Below are positions 2,997-44,794 of a DNA stretch of 53,056 nucleotides, piece after piece. This stretch comes from Candidatus Tayloriibacteriota bacterium (GTDB lineage Bacteria > Patescibacteriota > Minisyncoccia > Phycocordibacterales > CAIZLB01). Numbering within the stretch: the stretch's first letter is position 1; each line of letters opens with the position of its first letter. The notes beneath the pieces were generated by a model. It worked only from the letters and a program-made list of their open reading frames with translations. It made no database searches and had not been told where the DNA came from. Where the stretch lies: positions 1 to 53,056 of the forward strand of contig VEQN01000004.1 in the NCBI GenBank assembly GCA_018883165.1, given 5' to 3'. Both the position numbers and the translations under genes were made by a program.

Positions 2997-5900
2997 CTAC
3001 TGTTCTGTAGTAACAGGTTCCGTATTACTAGATATAGCAGTGTTTGCGGTTGTCTCTGCAGGCGGAACTTCCTCCTGAGGCTGATCTGCAACTGGAGTAG
3101 CAGAATCTGAATCTGATGGAGCAGAGTCAGCCACCGGTTCGGAGTCAGAAGATGTCTCTACTGGTGGTGTATCAACAGATGAAGTCGCATTCTCAATTGG
3201 AGCTGTATATGGCGCCGCACCTGCATTGTGTATGAGCATTTGTTTAAATTGATCTTTTGTTACACACACGTCATCAACACAGATATCACCATTTACATTA
3301 AATTTTTGACCGCCATCCTTAAACCAAGCAACCATATTCTCGATTCCAGACTTTAAAGTATCCAATTGATTTTTCAACTCTTTTACCGCACCTACCATAA
3401 CAGCTGTTATCTGATTGTATGACAACTCTCTTTGATCACTGAAAAGATCTGTAGATATCTTTGATACTGCGTTTGGAATTGCTAATTCAACATCTTGTGC
3501 CAAGAAACCGAGTACCGGCTGACCTGTTGGATTATTCTTCCATGTAAACGAAACTGGCTGAAGTTTAGATATTGCATCTAGTGCAATTGTAGAATCAAGA
3601 TCGAACTGGACATCCTTTAGACGTGCATCTGAGACTGCATTGAACTCCGATGCCAATATTCTACCCTGTGCACGAATTGAATATGAATTAGTTCCCGCTG
3701 AGGTTCCTGTACCTCCAGATGAATTCAACCATCCATATGTTTGATATGAATCAACTGTTGAATACACATCGAGTGGGAATGCTGGTGTAGATGTCCCTAT
3801 ACCAATGTTTCCTGCAAGCAGTGTTCCTGCTGAACTTCCTTGAGCTCCTGTGCCAATTCCAAGGACACCACTTGATATACGTGAGATACTTGTATCAAGT
3901 GTACCAATGTTCGCAGTAGCATTTCCGAAAGCAAGTTTTCCTGTAGATCCGAGACGGAAGTCTGCTGGGCCACCAGAGCCTGTTGTATCTGTCACAATCT
4001 GCCATGTAGAACCGAGGGTGTTATGACTACCGGAAATTGTCTGATTTACACTTCCACCAATTGTGATATTAGCATTCACGCTAGCAGCCTGGCCAACGAT
4101 CAATTGACCACTGATATTACCCGCTTGACCGACCGTAAGAACACCAGCACTACTCATGTTAAGCAATCGTGCATTTGTAGATGATGCGATTGTAAGCAAA
4201 TCTGTTGTGGCACCTGATGCTCCAGTAACTGCAAATCGAGCAATTGGAGTACTCGTACCAACACCAATGTTTCCAGCTGCAATACTTGCACCAGAGACAG
4301 TGTTCATATTTGTACCCCACAACACTCCACCAATGTTTAATGTATAGTTTGAACTGCTTGAAGGTGTACTTACACCGTCACCGTTGTTACCAGATCCAAT
4401 AACAATATTACCTGTTCCACCAGTTAGGGTGTATCCAGCTTTCATACCCAGCGCCACGTTGTAATGACCACTCGTCAAACTGTTCAACGCGTATGAACCG
4501 ACAGCAGTGTTTGAAATACTTGTAGAAATAGCAGTGAGTGCATCATATCCAATCGCTACGTTGTCCGGCCCACTCGTTGAAGCATCAAGTGCATTCATAC
4601 CTACAGCAATATTTCTTTGTCCCGATGAGATTAACATACCTGCACCTCTACCAACAGCAACGTTGTTTGCACTTGATGAGTTTACGGATTGTAGCGCAGT
4701 GAAACCAATGGCAGTATTTGAGCTTCCCGACGCACCTGTATTACCCGCACCACCGACATATATGTTTGACTGGGTTGTTGAAGCAGCCAAGAGTAATGTT
4801 GTATCTCTTACCAAGAACGATCCTGCCGAACCTAATATATTTACACCTCCACTAATTGTACTAGTTCCAACTACCGCTAAAGTTGATACTGGGGAGGTTG
4901 TACCAATTCCAACATTACCAGATGTATCAATTGTCATTCTCGTGGTACTTGAGGTCATAAACGCCAATGACCTGCCCGATCCGGTACCTGAATTTTCAGT
5001 TCCAATTCTAAATACATTAGTATCCCAATTAAAGGCACCCCTTTCATAGTTAGTAGCAGAAGAATAGGTATTATACAATCTAAAATTTCCAGCGGTTGAA
5101 CCATTTCTAAGAGCAAGTGTCTGTGCAGCTTCTGAAACCATAACTGAAATATTCCCACCACCTTGATCGATTTGGAAACTTCCATACCCAGTACGAGAGA
5201 GATTATCTATGGCCACATTACCAGCCCCTCCAACAGTAATATTACCCCCTGATGCATACGCGCTTCGTAGACTTATAACGATACCTGAGCTAGATGACGA
5301 TGTCACAGAAAGGCCGTTCAATGAATTGATACTTGTGTCACCGTTTGCTGCAACCGTAAATACACCTGCGTTTGTCGATGAGGCTAATCTAAACAATTCC
5401 GTAGTAGCACCTGATGCACCTAGAACTGAGAGTCTTGCAACAGGGGTACTTGTTCCGACACCTACATTACCAATAGAATAAGAAATATCGTTTCCTGATG
5501 TCACCCATTGACTCGGGGTGACACCAAGTGACGAGGTTGCAACCCACTGTGCACCTGTACCTGTTGACTGAAGTACCATACCTGATGTTCCAGAATCCCC
5601 GTTTATCCTAAATCCTCCCGTAAGGTTGATATCACCTGCTACAGTTAATGCATATCCTGGAGTTGAGGTTCCAATCCCCACATCCCCCGCTTGTGTAATT
5701 CTAAACAAAGATGGTCCTGTTGATGATGCAAAGTCGACAACATCTTTTCCTGCTTGTGCTTGTACGAACAATGTAGTTGATGTTGAGGTTGTACCCATGG
5801 ATAGGTTTCGTACGATGAGGTCACGCCAGGTGCCAGTTGTGCCGCTATTTATTTCAAGTGCACCAGTAAATGCACGTGAAATTCCAGCATCATACGTCCC

Positions 5901-7730
5901 CGCTGTGGCATTATTCGTGTACTGTGTCCAACCTATTTGCCCATTTGCTGACAAAGCATGATGAGTGATATTTATGGCATGTTGAGCTCCAAGAGTAGTC
6001 AAACCCGACATTGGACCTATATGTATATTACCTGAGGTGGTTGTGATGCTTCCAGCCTGATTAATATTCAATGTCCCAACAGCGACGGTACCTGCGCTCG
6101 AAACAGAAAGTAATGCTGAGTTTGTTGAGGAGGCAACTGTAAATATCGGGTCTGTTGCACCAGATACACCAGTAACTGAAAGTCTCGCAGCCGGTGTAGA
6201 TGTACCTATTCCCAAACCACCATTAGCGGTAACAACACCAAGGATGGAATTATTTACATCGAGCCATTGTTGCAGATCAGCTGTTTGTCCGGTCCTCCCT
6301 TTTATAGCAACAGCAATTGTACTGGATGATCCAGAATCAAACATTGCAGTCTGCTTGACGGTCAACGCAGGACTCGAAGTACTGAATGTGCCATTAGATA
6401 CGTTCATGTATACCGCATATGATGGTGTGATATAGAATCTCTGTACATAACTTGAATCCAGAATCTCAAAAATATTTGATGATTGACCAGAAGCTGTCTG
6501 CAATATAAATCCACGAGATGTTGGGGATTGCATCTTAATAGCAAGATCTGCACTTGGTGAAGATGTCCCTATACCCACATTTCCACTGTAATAAATATTT
6601 GAACCAGATGTTACCCACTGACTTGAAGTTATTCCTAGAGAACTTGTAGACACATCCCCTGTAAGTCCTCCAATCGAAGTTACACCAGAGTTTGTGAGGG
6701 TGTTTCCACTCCAAGACAAACCGGTCCCTGCAGTAATTCTTGTGGAAGGTGTGTTCCAAAAAGCAGAAATATTTGTTGTTGATGCATATGCAAGTGCCCA
6801 TTCTGTTGTTGATGCAGTAAATGGAATAGCATATCCAGAAGTAAGCGAGGTGAGTCCTGTACTGTTATCATATGAAAGACCAGCAACACTTGTAGAGAAC
6901 ATTGACCTCACAGTTGAGGTAGAAACCATCGCTTGAATTGTTGAGGTTGCGGCATTGATCCGTGCATCAACGCGTGAGTCAGTAAAATACAAATTTGTAC
7001 CTTCCACTAAATCTGAGGTAGAGAGAGATGAGGTTGAAAAACTTAGAACACCAGATGATTGATCATACGTGAGTACACCACCAGATACAGAGACAGATGC
7101 TCTGGCGGACGATGTAGAGAATGACGTTGCCGGACTACTACTACCCAAAGCAGTAATCTGTTCCCGAAGTGGTGCAAGGGCCAATTCAATATCATTTACT
7201 ACCTGCCTTGAAGATGTAGTGTCAGATGATGGTATGGAGTATGTGCCACCCGATGTGGTATATGTGTTATATATATTCTGAGTTACGGGTTGCACGAGGA
7301 CACGCTCACCTCGTGCCAACTCCAAGTCACTTACTCTTTTTCTGAGCTGATTTAATTGAGTACTGAGTACTGTATCAACCTGTTTTGATGTTGGCGCTGT
7401 ATACGTAGGTAGAGACACACTTCTGCGAGCCACATTGTTAACTGGATTAGTTTCCTTTTCTTTTATAGTTTCAGTAACTCTGTCTCGAGTATAGATTGGT
7501 TCAATTGCTCCAGAGCCAAAATTCACCAACTTATCAAACACAGAACGAACAACTTCTGAAATCGAAGCGACTTGTGTCTTTGTGTCTGGATTGAATACTC
7601 TCTTTTTCTCGAGTTCAAATACCGGTTTTTTATATACCGCCTCGACAATTTTTTTTGAGTTAAGTGACTGATATACCCCTGAGATATCTATAGCTACAGC
7701 ATCTTTAGGTGTAGACAAAAAGATACACAT
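2997..7730 (-). CDS. Large secreted fibre/adhesin-like protein with C-terminal peptidase S74 intramolecular chaperone (true start probably upstream, see findings)
   Basis: Seven G[NDG]xG[IV]GT(S/T)(T/S)P repeats, an EGTNLYFTDSRVDARI fibre motif, N(T/V)A(I/V)G repeats, S74 motif SDARLK...GFLAQDVE...LSYNQIT, and an acidic Pro/Thr tail. Confidence 0.85.
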   Translation of the reverse strand: MCIFLSTPKDAVAIDISGVYQSLNSKKIVEAVYKKPVFELEKKRVFNPDTKTQVASISEVVRSVFDKLVNFGSGAIEPIYTRDRVTETIKEKETNPVNNVARRSVSLPTYTAPTSKQVDTVLSTQLNQLRKRVSDLELARGERVLVQPVTQNIYNTYTTSGGTYSIPSSDTTSSRQVVNDIELALAPLREQITALGSSSPATSFSTSSARASVSVSGGVLTYDQSSGVLSFSTSSLSTSDLVEGTNLYFTDSRVDARINAATSTIQAMVSTSTVRSMFSTSVAGLSYDNSTGLTSLTSGYAIPFTASTTEWALAYASTTNISAFWNTPSTRITAGTGLSWSGNTLTNSGVTSIGGLTGDVSTSSLGITSSQWVTSGSNIYYSGNVGIGTSSPSADLAIKMQSPTSRGFILQTASGQSSNIFEILDSSYVQRFYITPSYAVYMNVSNGTFSTSSPALTVKQTAMFDSGSSSTIAVAIKGRTGQTADLQQWLDVNNSILGVVTANGGLGIGTSTPAARLSVTGVSGATDPIFTVASSTNSALLSVSSAGTVAVGTLNINQAGSITTTSGNIHIGPMSGLTTLGAQHAINITHHALSANGQIGWTQYTNNATAGTYDAGISRAFTGALEINSGTTGTWRDLIVRNLSMGTTSTSTTLFVQAQAGKDVVDFASSTGPSLFRITQAGDVGIGTSTPGYALTVAGDINLTGGFRINGDSGTSGMVLQSTGTGAQWVATSSLGVTPSQWVTSGNDISYSIGNVGVGTSTPVARLSVLGASGATTELFRLASSTNAGVFTVAANGDTSINSLNGLSVTSSSSSGIVISLRSAYASGGNITVGGAGNVAIDNLSRTGYGSFQIDQGGGNISVMVSEAAQTLALRNGSTAGNFRLYNTYSSATNYERGAFNWDTNVFRIGTENSGTGSGRSLAFMTSSTTRMTIDTSGNVGIGTTSPVSTLAVVGTSTISGGVNILGSAGSFLVRDTTLLLAASTTQSNIYVGGAGNTGASGSSNTAIGFTALQSVNSSSANNVAVGRGAGMLISSGQRNIAVGMNALDASTSGPDNVAIGYDALTAISTSISNTAVGSYALNSLTSGHYNVALGMKAGYTLTGGTGNIVIGSGNNGDGVSTPSSSSNYTLNIGGVLWGTNMNTVSGASIAAGNIGVGTSTPIARFAVTGASGATTDLLTIASSTNARLLNMSSAGVLTVGQAGNISGQLIVGQAASVNANITIGGSVNQTISGSHNTLGSTWQIVTDTTGSGGPADFRLGSTGKLAFGNATANIGTLDTSISRISSGVLGIGTGAQGSSAGTLLAGNIGIGTSTPAFPLDVYSTVDSYQTYGWLNSSGGTGTSAGTNSYSIRAQGRILASEFNAVSDARLKDVQFDLDSTIALDAISKLQPVSFTWKNNPTGQPVLGFLAQDVELAIPNAVSKISTDLFSDQRELSYNQITAVMVGAVKELKNQLDTLKSGIENMVAWFKDGGQKFNVNGDICVDDVCVTKDQFKQMLIHNAGAAPYTAPIENATSSVDTPPVETSSDSEPVADSAPSDSDSATPVADQPQEEVPPAETTANTAISSNTEPVTTEQ

Positions 7731-7825
7731 GAGTGCAACAAAGATAAAACCGATTTTGGTTTTAAAAAAAATTCATTGGCCTTTGTGTGTAGTATATCAC
7801 TTCTAGCCTTATTTCATAAAGAAAA

Positions 7826-7855
7826 AATGTGGAAAAGATTTAACTTTTCCACATT
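7826..7855. terminator. 12-bp inverted repeat downstream of the 7881 gene; arms resemble DnaA boxes
   Basis: aatgtggaaaag-atttaa-cttttccacatt. Confidence 0.5.
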
Positions 7856-7880: not shown

Positions 7881-8351
7881 TTATTTCTTAGATTTTGTTG
7901 TAGTAGCAGTAGTTGTTGCTTTGGTTGTACTTGCAGTCACAGTCTCCTTTTTCGCAGTTGTCTTTTGCGCAGTTACAGGAAGAATGTTCACGATAATATC
8001 TCGTGATGGGCTGTAGATAATTGCTCTACCTTCTTTCATAAATACAAGAATTTTGTCACCGTTAATTGCACCTTTAAAGACAGGTTGTTGTTCAATCATT
8101 GTCTTGGCATCGGTGATAGTGATCACATCTGGAGCTGATGGTTCCTGAATGAGGACCAGCTTGGCAACATTTTCCAATATCTTTTTATTTTCCTCAATAT
8201 TCGCTTTAGTGATTGAGCCTTGTGTATTGGCCATATTCTTTGGTGAATTACCTTTCATGTAGGACAAAGACCAGAAAATTCCAATCAATACAAGTATCAC
8301 TACAATGATTTTTACCTTCATACTATTTTTCTTTGGTTGATTTAATTCCAT
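7881..8351 (-). CDS. Hypothetical single-pass membrane protein, paralog of 2410..2904
   Basis: N-terminal TM helix; core ILENVAKLV...QQPVFKGAINGDKILVF...AIIYSPSRDIIVNILPV; Thr/Lys-rich tail. Confidence 0.8.
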   Translation of the reverse strand: MELNQPKKNSMKVKIIVVILVLIGIFWSLSYMKGNSPKNMANTQGSITKANIEENKKILENVAKLVLIQEPSAPDVITITDAKTMIEQQPVFKGAINGDKILVFMKEGRAIIYSPSRDIIVNILPVTAQKTTAKKETVTASTTKATTTATTTKSKK

Positions 8352-8433
8352 ATACGCGTACGTAAAAACTTTATATAAAGTATATCACCTATAGAAAGAG
8401 TACACTACCAAAAAGGTGATACCTGTGGAAATC

Positions 8434-10047
8434 TTATACCAACTTTATGAGCTCCAAAATGGTATCTTTAGCCACTTGAGGATTTACTGATCCTTTGGTG
8501 AGCTTCATAATCTGACCAACAAAGAATTGAATTGATGCTTCCTTCCCTGCTTTGTAGTCCGCGATAACGTTTGGGTTTGCAGCAAACAATTCCTCAATCA
8601 TTTTCTTCAGTGCTTCAGGATCGTTCTTTTGAATCATACCTCGTGCTTCTGCTATTTGTTTTGGAGTATTCTTTGAAACATCATCGATATCCACCTGCTC
8701 CACACTCCAATATAGTGCAATTAAATCTTTTGCACCTCGAGATGATAGTTCACCAGCAGAAATCATGTTAATGATTTCTGCGAATGCATCTTTTGATATT
8801 TGAATGAGATAAGATCCAGGTTCTCCCTTTTTATCTGTCACTGATTTCTTCACCAGACCAGCAATATCAGAAGTAATGTAGTTAATTGCTAACTTTATTT
8901 TCTCTGACTCGATTAATTTTTCAGCAACTTGTGTGAAAAAATTTCTAAACATTTCATTCTGCACAAACATCTCAGCATCTTCGTCTTTCATTGCGAAATC
9001 ATCTTTGTATGTCGCACGCATGTCCCAAGGAAGTTTTGGTAGTTGAATTGAATCTTTAGAGAACACTTCAGACACAATCAATTTTGGAAGATCTGGATCT
9101 GGGAAATATCGGTAATCGTGAGAATCTTCTTTTGCTCTCTGTGAAAATGTTTTACCAGTTGTCTCATCAAATCCCCTTGTTTCTTGGACTATTTTCAACC
9201 CTTTCTCTTTGAGAGTTGCGTCATCTGCACCCGAAGCACGAAGCTCCTCAGATCTTTCAAGAATATCAATATGTCTCTCTAGTTCATACTCAATTGCTCG
9301 TTCAACTGATTTGAATGAGTTCAGATTTTTAACTTCTACTTTTGTGCCGAAAGTTTTAAAGTCGTACGGTAACTCATGTGCTCTCGGGTTATCTGATACA
9401 GAAATATTTGCTTCAACTCGCATCTCTCCCTTTTCCATATTTGCTTCACCGGCTCCAAGTGTTCGAAGGAGTAGTTGTAATTCTTTTGCAAAATTCGCAG
9501 CAGTTTTTGCATCATGAATACAAGGCTCCGTTACAAGTTCCATGAGTGGAAGACCTGCTCGATTGAAATCAACCAAACTAAATGATCCTTTGTCATGACT
9601 TGAACTCGCTGTGTCTTCTTCAAGGTGAATTCTTGTCAGTCTTACAGTATGCATTCTAACTTGACCAGTCTCTGGATCGAGATCTTTAGGATCACCTTTT
9701 ACAACAAGTGATCCACCTTTTACAAGTGGATATGCATACTGACTGATCTGATACCCCTTTGGTATATCAGGATAGAAGTAGTTTTTTCGATCCCACTCAG
9801 TGTACTCTGCAATTTCAGATCCAAGCGATGTTCCAACCTTAATTACATGCTCGATAGCTTTTTTGTTCAATGTAGGCAGTGTCCCCGGATGACCCATACA
9901 AATGGCACAGATATTTGTATTCGGTTTTTCTTCATCGGGATTGTTTTTGCATGCACAAAACATTTTAGAGTTAGTCTTCAACTCGGCATGTATTTCAAGT
10001 CCAATTACTGGATAGTATTTTTTACCATTTGGTCGAGTGATGATCAT
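8434..10047 (-). CDS. gatB: Asp/Glu-tRNA amidotransferase subunit B
   Basis: IGLEIHAEL, RKNYFYPD, HLEED, DFNRAGLPLMELVT, EVKNLNSF and DYRYFPDPDL motifs. Confidence 0.97.
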   Translation of the reverse strand: MIITRPNGKKYYPVIGLEIHAELKTNSKMFCACKNNPDEEKPNTNICAICMGHPGTLPTLNKKAIEHVIKVGTSLGSEIAEYTEWDRKNYFYPDIPKGYQISQYAYPLVKGGSLVVKGDPKDLDPETGQVRMHTVRLTRIHLEEDTASSSHDKGSFSLVDFNRAGLPLMELVTEPCIHDAKTAANFAKELQLLLRTLGAGEANMEKGEMRVEANISVSDNPRAHELPYDFKTFGTKVEVKNLNSFKSVERAIEYELERHIDILERSEELRASGADDATLKEKGLKIVQETRGFDETTGKTFSQRAKEDSHDYRYFPDPDLPKLIVSEVFSKDSIQLPKLPWDMRATYKDDFAMKDEDAEMFVQNEMFRNFFTQVAEKLIESEKIKLAINYITSDIAGLVKKSVTDKKGEPGSYLIQISKDAFAEIINMISAGELSSRGAKDLIALYWSVEQVDIDDVSKNTPKQIAEARGMIQKNDPEALKKMIEELFAANPNVIADYKAGKEASIQFFVGQIMKLTKGSVNPQVAKDTILELIKLV

Positions 10048-11416: not shown

Positions 11417-13138
11417 TTGAACGTGAAATCCCTAATCTCATCACTTAGACCTACCGAAAAACTTTTTTTCGGTATATGTGTTACCTTGATCGTACTAAGC
11501 GGTCTGTACATTCTTGACGCGCTTAACAAAAAATATTCTGTAGAGATGCCGATGTCTGGAGGAACATATACAGAAGGTATCGTCGGGTACGCAAGATTCA
11601 TAAACCCGGTACTCGCATTCTCAGATGCGGACAAAGACCTCATAACCCTCATATACTCAGGACTTCTTAAAGCTTCACCTGAAGGTAAGCTTGTGTCGGA
11701 TCTCGCTGAATCATGGAATGTCTCAGAAGATGGTCTAACATACACAGTTACACTGAAACCAAATCTTGTATTCCATGACAACTCACCCCTTACAACGGAT
11801 GATATTGAGTTCACAATCGAAAAGATGCGGGATCAAAACATCAAAAGTCCAAAAGCAGATATTTGGAATGGAGTAAAAGTGGAAAAAGTAAACGAACGAG
11901 AAATTAAATTCATACTTAAAAAATCATACGCACCTTTTCTTGAGAACCTAACATTTGGTGTACTTCCTAAACATGTCTGGAAAGATATTGAACCTCAAGC
12001 ATTCGATGTACATATACTTAACCGAGAACCAATTGGTTCAGGACCATACAAGATTAAAAAAGTTGATGTCGATACATCTGGCATATATCAATCATACAGA
12101 CTTGAATCATTTGAGAAATATGCGCTAAAAACTCCATATATTGATCAGGTAATTATCACATTCTTCAAGAATGAAGCCGATGCCCTCTCTGCATACAAGA
12201 GTGGTAATATTGATGCAATCGGAGGTATTTCTCCTGAAGCAGCTACGGAATTAAAAGAAGATGGTTACACAGTTACAGCAACTTCACTACCTCGTGTATT
12301 TGCACTCTTCTTGAATCAAAGTAGCGCACCAGTACTTACCAACAAGGAGGTACGAAAAGCATTGAATGAATCAGTCGATCGAAATCACCTCATTAATGAA
12401 GTCCTCAAAGGTTGGGGTTCACCGGAGCAAGGACCAATTCCAGAAGACCTTTACAATGAACCAATTCTAAGTGATGCGAGTGCGGCGACTGCTCAGCAGG
12501 CTCAGAGAATACAAGATACACAGAAGCAGCTGCTTGATAAAGGGTGGAAACTTGGAGCTGACAATGTACTTGTGAAAGAAACAAAGTCTGGTAAGAAAAC
12601 CGAAACAGTAAGACTCAGTTTCTCTATCTCAACTTCAAATATCCCAGAATTAAAGAAAACAGCTGAGATACTTAAAGACACATGGACAAAGCTTGGTGCA
12701 GATGTTACAGTACAAATATTCGAACCATCTGATTTGACCCAAAAGGTCATTCGCCCAAGAAAGTATGACTCTCTCCTCTTCGGAAATGTAATCGGACGAG
12801 ATCTTGATTTATACCCATTCTGGCACTCTTCTGAGAGAAATGATCCTGGCCTCAATATCGCCCTGTATACAAACATTAAGGCAGACAAAGCACTGGATAC
12901 ATTACGAACAGCCTCAGATGAATCGAAAAGAAAGGAAGCATTTGATGTGTTCAATGCGGAAGTGGCGAATGACATCCCTGCAATATTCCTTTACTCACCT
13001 GGATATATATATGCAACCAGTGATTCAGTAAAAAACATTCAACTGCAAAATATGACCTCAATATCAGAACGATTTATGAATATTGATAAGTGGTACATAC
13101 ACACAGAGAGAATTTGGAAAATTTTCGTACAAAATTAA
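11417..13138 (+). CDS. ABC transporter substrate-binding protein, family 5 (peptide/nickel), with N-terminal TM anchor
   Basis: IYSGLLK, DLAESW, FHDNSPLTTDDIEFT, PIGSGPY and VRKAL motifs; TTG start. Confidence 0.9.
   Translation: MNVKSLISSLRPTEKLFFGICVTLIVLSGLYILDALNKKYSVEMPMSGGTYTEGIVGYARFINPVLAFSDADKDLITLIYSGLLKASPEGKLVSDLAESWNVSEDGLTYTVTLKPNLVFHDNSPLTTDDIEFTIEKMRDQNIKSPKADIWNGVKVEKVNEREIKFILKKSYAPFLENLTFGVLPKHVWKDIEPQAFDVHILNREPIGSGPYKIKKVDVDTSGIYQSYRLESFEKYALKTPYIDQVIITFFKNEADALSAYKSGNIDAIGGISPEAATELKEDGYTVTATSLPRVFALFLNQSSAPVLTNKEVRKALNESVDRNHLINEVLKGWGSPEQGPIPEDLYNEPILSDASAATAQQAQRIQDTQKQLLDKGWKLGADNVLVKETKSGKKTETVRLSFSISTSNIPELKKTAEILKDTWTKLGADVTVQIFEPSDLTQKVIRPRKYDSLLFGNVIGRDLDLYPFWHSSERNDPGLNIALYTNIKADKALDTLRTASDESKRKEAFDVFNAEVANDIPAIFLYSPGYIYATSDSVKNIQLQNMTSISERFMNIDKWYIHTERIWKIFVQN

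Positions 13139-43020: not shown

Positions 43021-44794
<1,774 letters not shown>

Follow-up and report, generated by a model that had tools for sequence, protein, structure and literature searches.

The closest documented analogue of the locus described here is the 5' poly(A) tract of inlA in Listeria monocytogenes, in which a one-base change reduces the product to 8 amino acids and abolishes the protein (Orsi, Bowen and Wiedmann 2010, PMC2831843). Reversion of this lesion occurs at about 1000 times the rate of point mutation and independent origins have been shown, while poly(A) and poly(T) runs of up to 7 nt are generally over-represented in prokaryotic genes and biased towards their 5' ends (PMC2831843). 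Genic homopolymers constitute contingency loci in Campylobacter, Neisseria, Bordetella, M. tuberculosis and Mycoplasma (e.g. PMC8355987, PMC5084427, PMC1891110). In the lineage of interest, a hypervariable in-frame repeat in a surface protein of Gracilibacteria, for which slipped-strand mispairing has been discussed, comes nearest (PMC6851277). Homopolymer phase variation as such was not found reported for Patescibacteria or Saccharibacteria in the literature searched.

Among the homopolymeric contingency loci of Mycoplasma is vaa of M. hominis. In insect endosymbionts, Tamas and colleagues reportedly described in 2008, from RNA data, that transcriptional slippage rescues frameshifted genes at poly(A) tracts of about 10 nt or more; in general, efficient transcriptional slippage usually needs runs of 9 or more. 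A programmed +1 frameshift of the ribosome is known from prfB, the gene of RF2, where it takes place at CUU UGA C. With respect to initiation, AUU start codons are known in bacteria from infC, and initiation on leaderless or short-leader mRNAs depends on AUG.

The gene considered here belongs to a Candidatus Tayloriibacteriota bacterium, and the stretch of DNA analysed, referred to as the window, is a whole contig of 53,056 nt from a metagenome-assembled genome (MAG) that comprises 749 kb in 30 contigs and is 99.7% complete. As callable, the ORF spans positions 2997 to 7730 on the minus strand and encodes 1577 amino acids, rich in Gly, Ser and Thr and featuring a recurring GIGTSTP-type motif. 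As in S74 tail fibres and endosialidase-like proteins, its C-terminal part carries a Peptidase_S74 domain that exceeds the Pfam threshold (PF13884, residues 1367-1422, positions 3465 to 3632, minus strand; E=1.9e-11, 44.5 bits vs a cut-off of 22), a domain that acts as intramolecular chaperone of endosialidases and tail fibres. From the composition, the motif and the domain, the product is predicted to be a secreted, phage-tail-fibre-like fibre of the cell surface. The gene lies between genes for proteins of 156 and 164 amino acids, with gatB upstream and the gene gap downstream. Upstream, the membrane-protein gene of 156 aa is closed off by a strong intrinsic terminator at 7826 to 7855 on the minus strand (12-bp stem, 6-nt loop and T-run; 0.0 expected in shuffles), which implies that the fibre gene constitutes its own transcription unit with its own promoter. 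The 156-aa gene itself (7881-8351), together with its terminator, separates gatB from the fibre gene in the window; in four congeneric genomes, gatB is followed directly by the fibre gene.

Read on the minus strand, an extended -10 element, TGATATACT, occupies positions 7799-7791 and is followed by a 14-nt spacer, ACACACAAAGGCCA, and the ATG at 7776. This first ATG past the promoter opens a mini-ORF (7762 to 7776, minus strand) of the sequence ATG (7776-7774) AAT TTT TTT TAA (7764-7762), which encodes MNFF and a stop and is followed by AAC C..., exactly as stated in a preliminary description of the sequence; the TGA which that description had placed upstream in the fibre ORF's own frame is likewise seen, at 7775-7773. 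The T8 homopolymer (7764 to 7771, minus strand), with A4 directly on its 3' side, occupies codons 2-5 of the 5' coding region and belongs to a length class, runs of at least 8 nt, that is depleted in the genome. It leaves the mini-ORF out of the fibre frame, which lies at +1 relative to ATG 7776 and comprises 1591 open codons beginning 4 nt past that ATG: after the TGA there follow ATT (7772), TTT TTT AAA ACC AAA ATC GGT TTT ATC TTT GTT GCA CTC and finally ATG 7730, the first canonical start of this frame, which yields the 1577-aa product. In silico, tract length toggles the frame between full and truncated products, as T7 gives a 1592-aa ORF from ATG 7776 and T8 an ORF of 4 aa; T7 and T10 join ATG 7776 to the fibre frame and T8 and T9 do not. 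With T7, the predicted product would begin MNFFKTKIGFIFVALMCIFLSTPKDAVA/IDI. A second 8-mer, A8 in the sense direction (TCA AAA AAA ATT = S K K I; 7649 to 7656, minus strand), lies in frame 74 nt past ATG 7730, and a one-base slip there would likewise inactivate the fibre gene. Recoding of TGA (code 4 or 25) was considered and rejected, since reading TGA 7775 as sense exposes no start before the TAG at 7805-7803; the genome is 92% coding under table 11.

The way in which this genome starts its genes was deduced from its 16S rRNA and from confident start codons. The 3' end of the 16S rRNA, GGAATCATTCAATTT, is devoid of the CCUCC anti-Shine-Dalgarno (anti-SD) sequence (16S gene, window 43225-43260, minus strand), and no purine-rich signal was detected genome-wide upstream of 265 confident ATG starts. 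The sole signal upstream of these 265 starts consists of T/G at -15/-14 and T-A...T at -12 to -7 (TG-n-TAnnnT, -15 to -7), which can be read as an extended -10 element so placed that transcription would begin at or just before the ATG. Genome-wide, TGnTAnnnT peaks 6-10 nt before ATG, and at this spacing the in-frame, ORF-opening codon is ATG in 108 cases, GTG in 3 and TTG in 2, while the frequency of ATT only roughly equals that of ATA or ATC, and some of these codons stand immediately before an ATG. At a spacing of 12-16 nt after the box, 18 further ATG starts were recorded. The more specific 9-mer TGATATA[AC]T is present 79 times in the genome, 47 of them with an ORF-opening ATG 6-10 nt downstream; hence the TGATATACT of the fibre gene, a member of this class, represents a bona fide promoter element and not a chance match. 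By this sequence grammar, the standard start of the genome is leaderless or short-leader, of the form TGATATACT-N6-9-ATG, and almost always ATG. As the first ATG past the box is the start codon in this genome, the intended start of the fibre gene is ATG 7776. Among the release-factor genes, prfB (RF2, SPF motif; contig C23, about 8200-9200, minus strand) is a single ORF without the programmed +1 frameshift site, which fits the missing anti-SD, and RF1 (PAT motif; contig C25, about 11800-12315) is present as well.

Relatives of the fibre gene point to the same start. Upstream regions were examined in five relatives (G007, G006, G005, G002 and G004) and N-termini in seven, with the addition of G001 and G008. 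In G007, G006, G005 and G002, which belong to the same genus, the fibre gene is syntenic, following gatB directly, and its ATG is located 15, 12, 16 and 9 nt, respectively, past an extended -10-like box (counted by hand); in G004, the ATG stands about 8 nt past a TATAAT, and the fibres of G001 and G008 feature plain ATG starts and signal peptides. All seven relatives thus possess an ATG start and an intact signal peptide of 27-30 aa, which in the syntenic cases comprises K/R, a hydrophobic core, an (A/T)P... motif and a small-x-small cleavage site. No out-of-frame start exists among the seven, and T5-T7 runs in the 5' ends read stay in frame. The orthologue comparison that had been proposed therefore bears out the in-frame ATG and signal peptide in every relative checked and supplies no tract-based out-of-frame start in any. 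The position of ATG 7776, 14 nt past its box, fits the geometry of the relatives, and from this spacing and the start grammar ATG 7776 is the intended start that T8 puts out of frame. As a separate observation, the fibre orthologue of G002 (G002:C1:36925-38331, locus L008; 1564 codons in total) contains a single in-frame TGA after 660 aa, past which the frame stays open; the TGA could be a nonsense allele, a site of readthrough or an error.

The predicted signal peptide leads to the same N-terminus. The 14 open in-frame codons IFFKTKIGFIFVAL (7731 to 7772, minus strand) would provide the n-region and most of the h-region, in an architecture shared by the signal peptides of the relatives, and the remainder, MCIFLSTPKDAVA, with its A-x-A cleavage motif (7692 to 7730, minus strand), contains ATG 7730 as sole canonical in-frame start. 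The upstream codons add two Lys and a 16-residue uncharged hydrophobic stretch, both absent from the ATG 7730 product. From ATG 7730, only 8 uncharged residues without K/R precede the cleavage motif, and the hydrophobic core left is MCIFLSTP, with a maximum KD(10) of 1.5 vs 2.1-3.5 in the relatives, so that the earlier judgement of this core as too short holds. Because the upstream codons complete the signal peptide and the relatives share its architecture, the N-terminus is placed upstream of 7730; we infer that the gene in its ancestral form almost certainly started at ATG 7776, followed by T7 (M N F F K...). The preliminary description had arrived at a proper signal peptide from this ATG with T7, and promoter geometry, start rules and the seven relatives now agree with it.

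The T8 allele itself was encountered in two assemblies. Contig metazooDRAFT_1372298 of the JGI metagenome 3300002470 matches the window at 100% identity across 3088 nt that include the T8, and a sister contig of the same metagenome carries one SNP at window position 2788 (G vs A), the only difference in 5.7 kb of JGI contigs. This SNP is synonymous, lies in the 164-aa gene downstream of the fibre gene and indicates that the 3300002470 consensus is separate and not a copy of the MAG. Both assemblies nevertheless come out of one project, and only this SNP sets them apart in 5.7 kb, so that they do not confirm the base call fully independently. The organism is present in at least three samples of this project (3300002470, 3300002476 and 3300002206). 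A T7 or any other length variant was not found, both assemblies that cover the site being T8: exact look-ups returned one JGI contig across the site (T8) and zero for GatB, protein searches with the N-terminus and a 308-aa fragment returned only the window's own protein or distant motif matches, scans of genome and metagenome contigs yielded only distant relatives with a VEGTNLYF motif and no conspecific contig, and viral contigs gave no match to a pattern permitting T5-T11. The JGI 3300002470 contigs at the locus stop at window positions 4173 and 6849, both within the fibre gene, whose central part with most copies of the GIGTSTP-type motif is evidently unassembled there, perhaps owing to internal repeats or strain variation.

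In general, the genome offers many sites at which such a lesion may arise. No MutS_V or MutL (DNA_mis_repair) domain was detected in the 99.7%-complete genome, in a search that recovered such domains from 11 of 14 control genomes. For an A/T run, the probability of extension by one base amounts to about 0.31-0.36 up to a length of about 6 and then falls to 0.22, 0.09-0.13 and 0-0.06 (about lengths 6-8). Accordingly, runs of 6-7 nt are common (246 seven-mers, 121 T7 and 125 A7), and 30 runs of at least 8 nt are observed vs about 60 expected from the 6-to-7 extension rate. The falling extension probability implies that runs of at least 8 nt are selected against, and T7 runs in Phe/Lys-rich N-termini are abundant mutational targets that lie one slip from a disfavoured length.

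The account that fits these observations best, and which we hold with evenly balanced confidence, is that a real slipped-strand T7-to-T8 allele uncouples the sole effective start from the signal peptide and the fibre frame, the gene being OFF or leaky and the event incidental. The fibre gene would be transcribed from its own TGATATACT promoter into a short-leader mRNA with a leader of about 6-8 nt, and initiation would be intended at the first AUG, 7776. The ancestral 5' coding sequence would have been ATG AAT TTT TTT AAA (M N F F K, T7), to which one T was added in the sequenced population, most likely by slipped-strand mispairing in the absence of mismatch repair. Ribosomes starting at AUG 7776 would then synthesize MNFF and stop, leaving the frame of 1591 codons uncoupled and the gene translationally OFF. 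At most, a leak may arise from rare +1 slippage of RNA polymerase or ribosome on U8-UAA, from weak initiation at AUU or from re-initiation at AUG 7730, the last of which would yield a non-exportable protein; a reversal from T8 to T7 would be possible in principle. Directly seen in the data are the sequence, the promoter and start grammar, the N-termini of the relatives, the recurrence of T8, the lack of MutS and MutL and a second lesion of identical type in this genome; where transcription starts (predicted near 7784), that the gene is OFF, that it descends from T7 and how the mutation arose we infer, and the T7 ancestry rests on frame logic and the relatives, given that no T7 allele was seen and that the relatives' N-termini do not align at the sequence level. 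Two features sit less easily with this account: a majority-OFF state is odd for an otherwise intact 4.7-kb gene, except where the lesion arose very recently, leaks or can revert, and the 14-nt spacing of ATG 7776 lies outside the main 6-10-nt leaderless class. Moreover, as an in-frame ATT exists, no frameshift is strictly required.

A second locus resembles the first. A stringent genome screen, which required a promoter box with a first ATG, a homopolymer and a one-base change that completes a signal peptide, returned only two convincing matches, namely the window locus and one on contig C2; more generic screens for homopolymer-split genes were swamped by normal gene junctions or internal sites. 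In the C2 lesion (locus L048, minus strand; ATG at + coordinate 840, T7 at 798-804), the ATG frame, MKKIYILLIATSFF (a 23-aa ORF), is parted by one extra T in T7 from a frame that reads VPSVSHGVTKNTSDW... (VPSVSHG/VTKNTSDW...) and continues for at least 271 aa until it runs off the contig end. Judged by eye, the protein bears a resemblance to peptidoglycan-binding proteins in one segment, and in its homologues from G003 and G007 the signal peptide is intact. At C2, there is neither an in-frame near-cognate codon able to supply the signal peptide nor a stop after the run. C2-locus contigs from other samples (L049 and L050) end before the tract. Poly-C tracts (C8 on C2 and C7 on C24) were tried as further switches and discarded, being arms of intergenic G/C hairpins.

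These features might suggest a contingency locus, that is, a selected and reversible switch with T7 and T10 ON and T8 and T9 OFF, which hedges the display of an attachment fibre and was caught in the OFF state by the assemblies. The position of the tract at codons 2-5 of a surface protein recalls classical switches such as inlA of L. monocytogenes (PMC2831843), the genome is devoid of mismatch repair, the rest of the 1577-codon ORF is intact, and the C2 gene for a second secreted protein is broken likewise in the same genome. In addition, all runs of at least 6 nt in the fibre gene (T8, A8 and A6) fall within its first 151 nt. Nevertheless, we consider such a switch unlikely. No length variant has come to light, T8 being present in both assemblies and nothing else in the collections searched; the starts of the relatives are in frame and unbroken by the T5-T7 runs in the 5' ends read; and T7 runs are so common that occasional hits are expected without selection. 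The 5' clustering of long runs was rejected as a sign of design by resampling of synonymous codons according to genome codon usage, in which at least two runs of at least 7 nt in the first 150 nt occurred with P = 0.14 and a gene body free of runs of at least 6 nt with P = 0.31; the clustering thus stems from the K/F-rich N-terminus and the G/S/T-rich body. With all seven relatives in frame and the clustering unexceptional, maintenance of the tract by selection finds no support. The further-reaching proposal that in this ultra-small CPR bacterium T-runs in signal-peptide Phe codons serve as reversible switches for at least two secreted proteins (the S74 fibre and the peptidoglycan-binding-like protein of C2), forming a small 'phasome' that controls which surface and attachment proteins are displayed, likewise appears improbable. 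Phase variation, the first option of the preliminary description, therefore survives as an OFF allele produced by slippage, which is the best fit, and not as an evolved switch, against which the missing variant, the in-frame relatives and the composition speak; an incidental hazard of T-runs in Phe codons of signal peptides fits better than a selected switch.

Another reading holds that T8 is a sequencing or assembly artefact and that the organism truly carries T7 and an intact gene. It would be the simplest restoration of an otherwise perfect 4.7-kb ORF, homopolymers are the classic site of indel errors, and this one MAG contains two single-T excesses (T8 in the window and T7 on C2). On the other hand, T8 recurs in the 3300002470 assembly, whose consensus differs by a nearby SNP. 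A/T runs of at least 8 nt number only 30 in the 749-kb genome, only one of them reaching at least 9 nt, and the frame stays open across the other 27 runs of 8-9 nt in called ORFs. Among runs of at least 7 nt, 237 of 276 are located within intact ORFs, and the 15 largest candidate junctions read, as well as the positions neighbouring the 39 runs outside, resemble ordinary junctions, promoters or terminators, with no split gene at the junctions inspected. Random errors should mostly strike the roughly 270 other long runs, essential genes included. Serial numbers in the millions in the contig names suggest short-read sequencing, for which consensus errors at a T8 are uncommon. As T8 is found in a second assembly and the long in-ORF runs remain open, systematic homopolymer miscalling is unlikely, with a small probability left for a single error; the assembly error contemplated at the outset is weakened on the same grounds, and we regard an artefact as quite unlikely.

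If T8 is the normal state, translation may alternatively start at the in-frame ATT 7772, giving (M)FFKTKIGF... with no need for a frameshift. The frame is open from this codon, the signal peptide would be as good as in the T7 version, and an AUU start has bacterial precedent in infC. Within this genome, AUU initiation has neither precedent nor signal in the initiation context, as the codon counts and the missing SD system indicate: an AAAGG located 7 nt upstream of the ATT cannot serve as SD, because the 16S rRNA is without CCUCC and the genome has no SD signal, and the starts that follow the promoter class comprise 108 ATG vs 5 GTG and TTG, with ATT only about as frequent as ATA or ATC. In addition, the AUG that stands 4 nt upstream of the ATT, behind a leader of about 7 nt, should capture the ribosomes, an AUU start conflicts with the AUG dependence of leaderless and short-leader initiation, and all seven relatives use ATG. 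The parallel case on C2 is beyond near-cognate rescue and by analogy weakens both the ATT start and a 'shifty stop' reading of the window site. The rare ATT start once entertained has accordingly lost ground to the missing SD and anti-SD, to the near-exclusive use of ATG and to C2, and is distinctly improbable.

T8 may also be normal if the frame is restored by recoding, either by a slip of RNA polymerase to U7 or by a ribosomal +1 shift at UUU UAA A, which would set a low level of fibre. U8 followed immediately by a stop corresponds to a classical slippery run with a shifty stop, and tRNA-Phe could re-pair perfectly on UUU after a +1 shift while UAA occupies the A site. However, since no relative is out of frame, the arrangement is not a conserved recoding device, and no conserved shift site or stop, SD-like stimulator or anti-SD pairing of the prfB type was found; prfB in this very genome lacks a frameshift, UAA can be decoded by RF1 as well as by RF2, both of which are encoded, and the run on C2 is not followed by a stop. 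With respect to transcription, the run of 8 nt is shorter than the usual slippage threshold of 9 or more, and runs of 8-9 nt in frame in 27 other ORFs argue against efficient slippage, which, given in-frame runs of 7-9 nt in more than 200 genes, could not operate without harming them. Programmed slippage, as put forward earlier, is unlikely in an efficient form given the lack of conservation and the many like runs in frame, and we deem recoding highly improbable, although a few per cent of leak may occur.

Finally, a start at ATG 7730, in line with the gene call and with the open codons upstream due to chance, is scarcely credible: this ATG is the first canonical in-frame start, was picked by gene callers in the JGI contig and follows 14 open codons that by themselves are not significant (about 0.5 by chance), but it has no promoter box at the proper distance, the n- and h-regions missing from its K/R-free, weakly hydrophobic core are supplied exactly by the codons upstream, and the relatives all bear full signal peptides vs the curtailed one that it would produce.

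The proposed incidental T7-to-T8 allele, to which we return, would be a lesion of a familiar kind among slippage mutations; the gene is probably OFF, and there is no evidence for an evolved on/off switch. Although the event is ordinary in kind, no published report of it was found in this phylum. A real T8 would mean that the principal fibre-like protein of the surface, whose gene lies beside gatB, is not exported in the sampled population, which bears on the host attachment of episymbiont-like cells. For MAG annotation, the locus illustrates that gene callers silently start at ATG 7730 and that the signal peptide is lost thereby. The loss of the anti-SD, the TGATATACT-N6-9-ATG grammar and the depletion of runs of at least 8 nt may prove more useful for the annotation of this lineage than the frameshift itself. 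Furthermore, the question is raised whether the frameshifts that T/A runs cause in signal peptides of surface proteins from CPR are polymorphic, as switches would be, or fixed, as expected of decay in the absence of mismatch repair. Should the 'phasome' be true after all, phase variation by simple sequences would be documented for the first time in Patescibacteria, coupled to a leaderless or short-leader, SD-independent mode of initiation that offers ribosomes one AUG and no other point of entry.

Compared with the systems introduced above, the fibre gene shares single traits with each. As in prfB, the P-site tRNA can re-pair in the +1 frame while a stop codon occupies the A site; unlike prfB, the site is devoid of an SD-like stimulator, an anti-SD and conservation, both release factors recognize its UAA, and prfB of this organism is itself free of such a device. 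With the endosymbiont genes rescued by transcriptional slippage, it has in common an AT-rich reduced genome, frameshifts at A/T runs in otherwise intact genes and a possible partial rescue at the RNA level, although the run here measures 8 nt. Contingency loci likewise rely on slipped-strand ON/OFF changes in the 5' coding region of surface structures, often in genomes deficient in mismatch repair; their tracts, however, are usually longer (G8-G13, A8 or more), kept across strains and polymorphic within cultures, whereas the T8 described here has no equivalent out-of-frame start in the relatives examined and is monomorphic in two assemblies. The case of inlA differs in that reversion was measured there, while the fibre gene, with no length variant seen, belongs to an uncultured CPR bacterium without mismatch repair or SD-led initiation. 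Nevertheless, the two coincide in the essential layout, an A/T homopolymer in the first codons of the gene for a secreted surface protein, where a one-base change cuts the product down to 8 aa there and to 4 aa here, and, in keeping with the wider pattern described alongside inlA, 6-7-mers are common in the present genome and runs of at least 8 nt are depleted.
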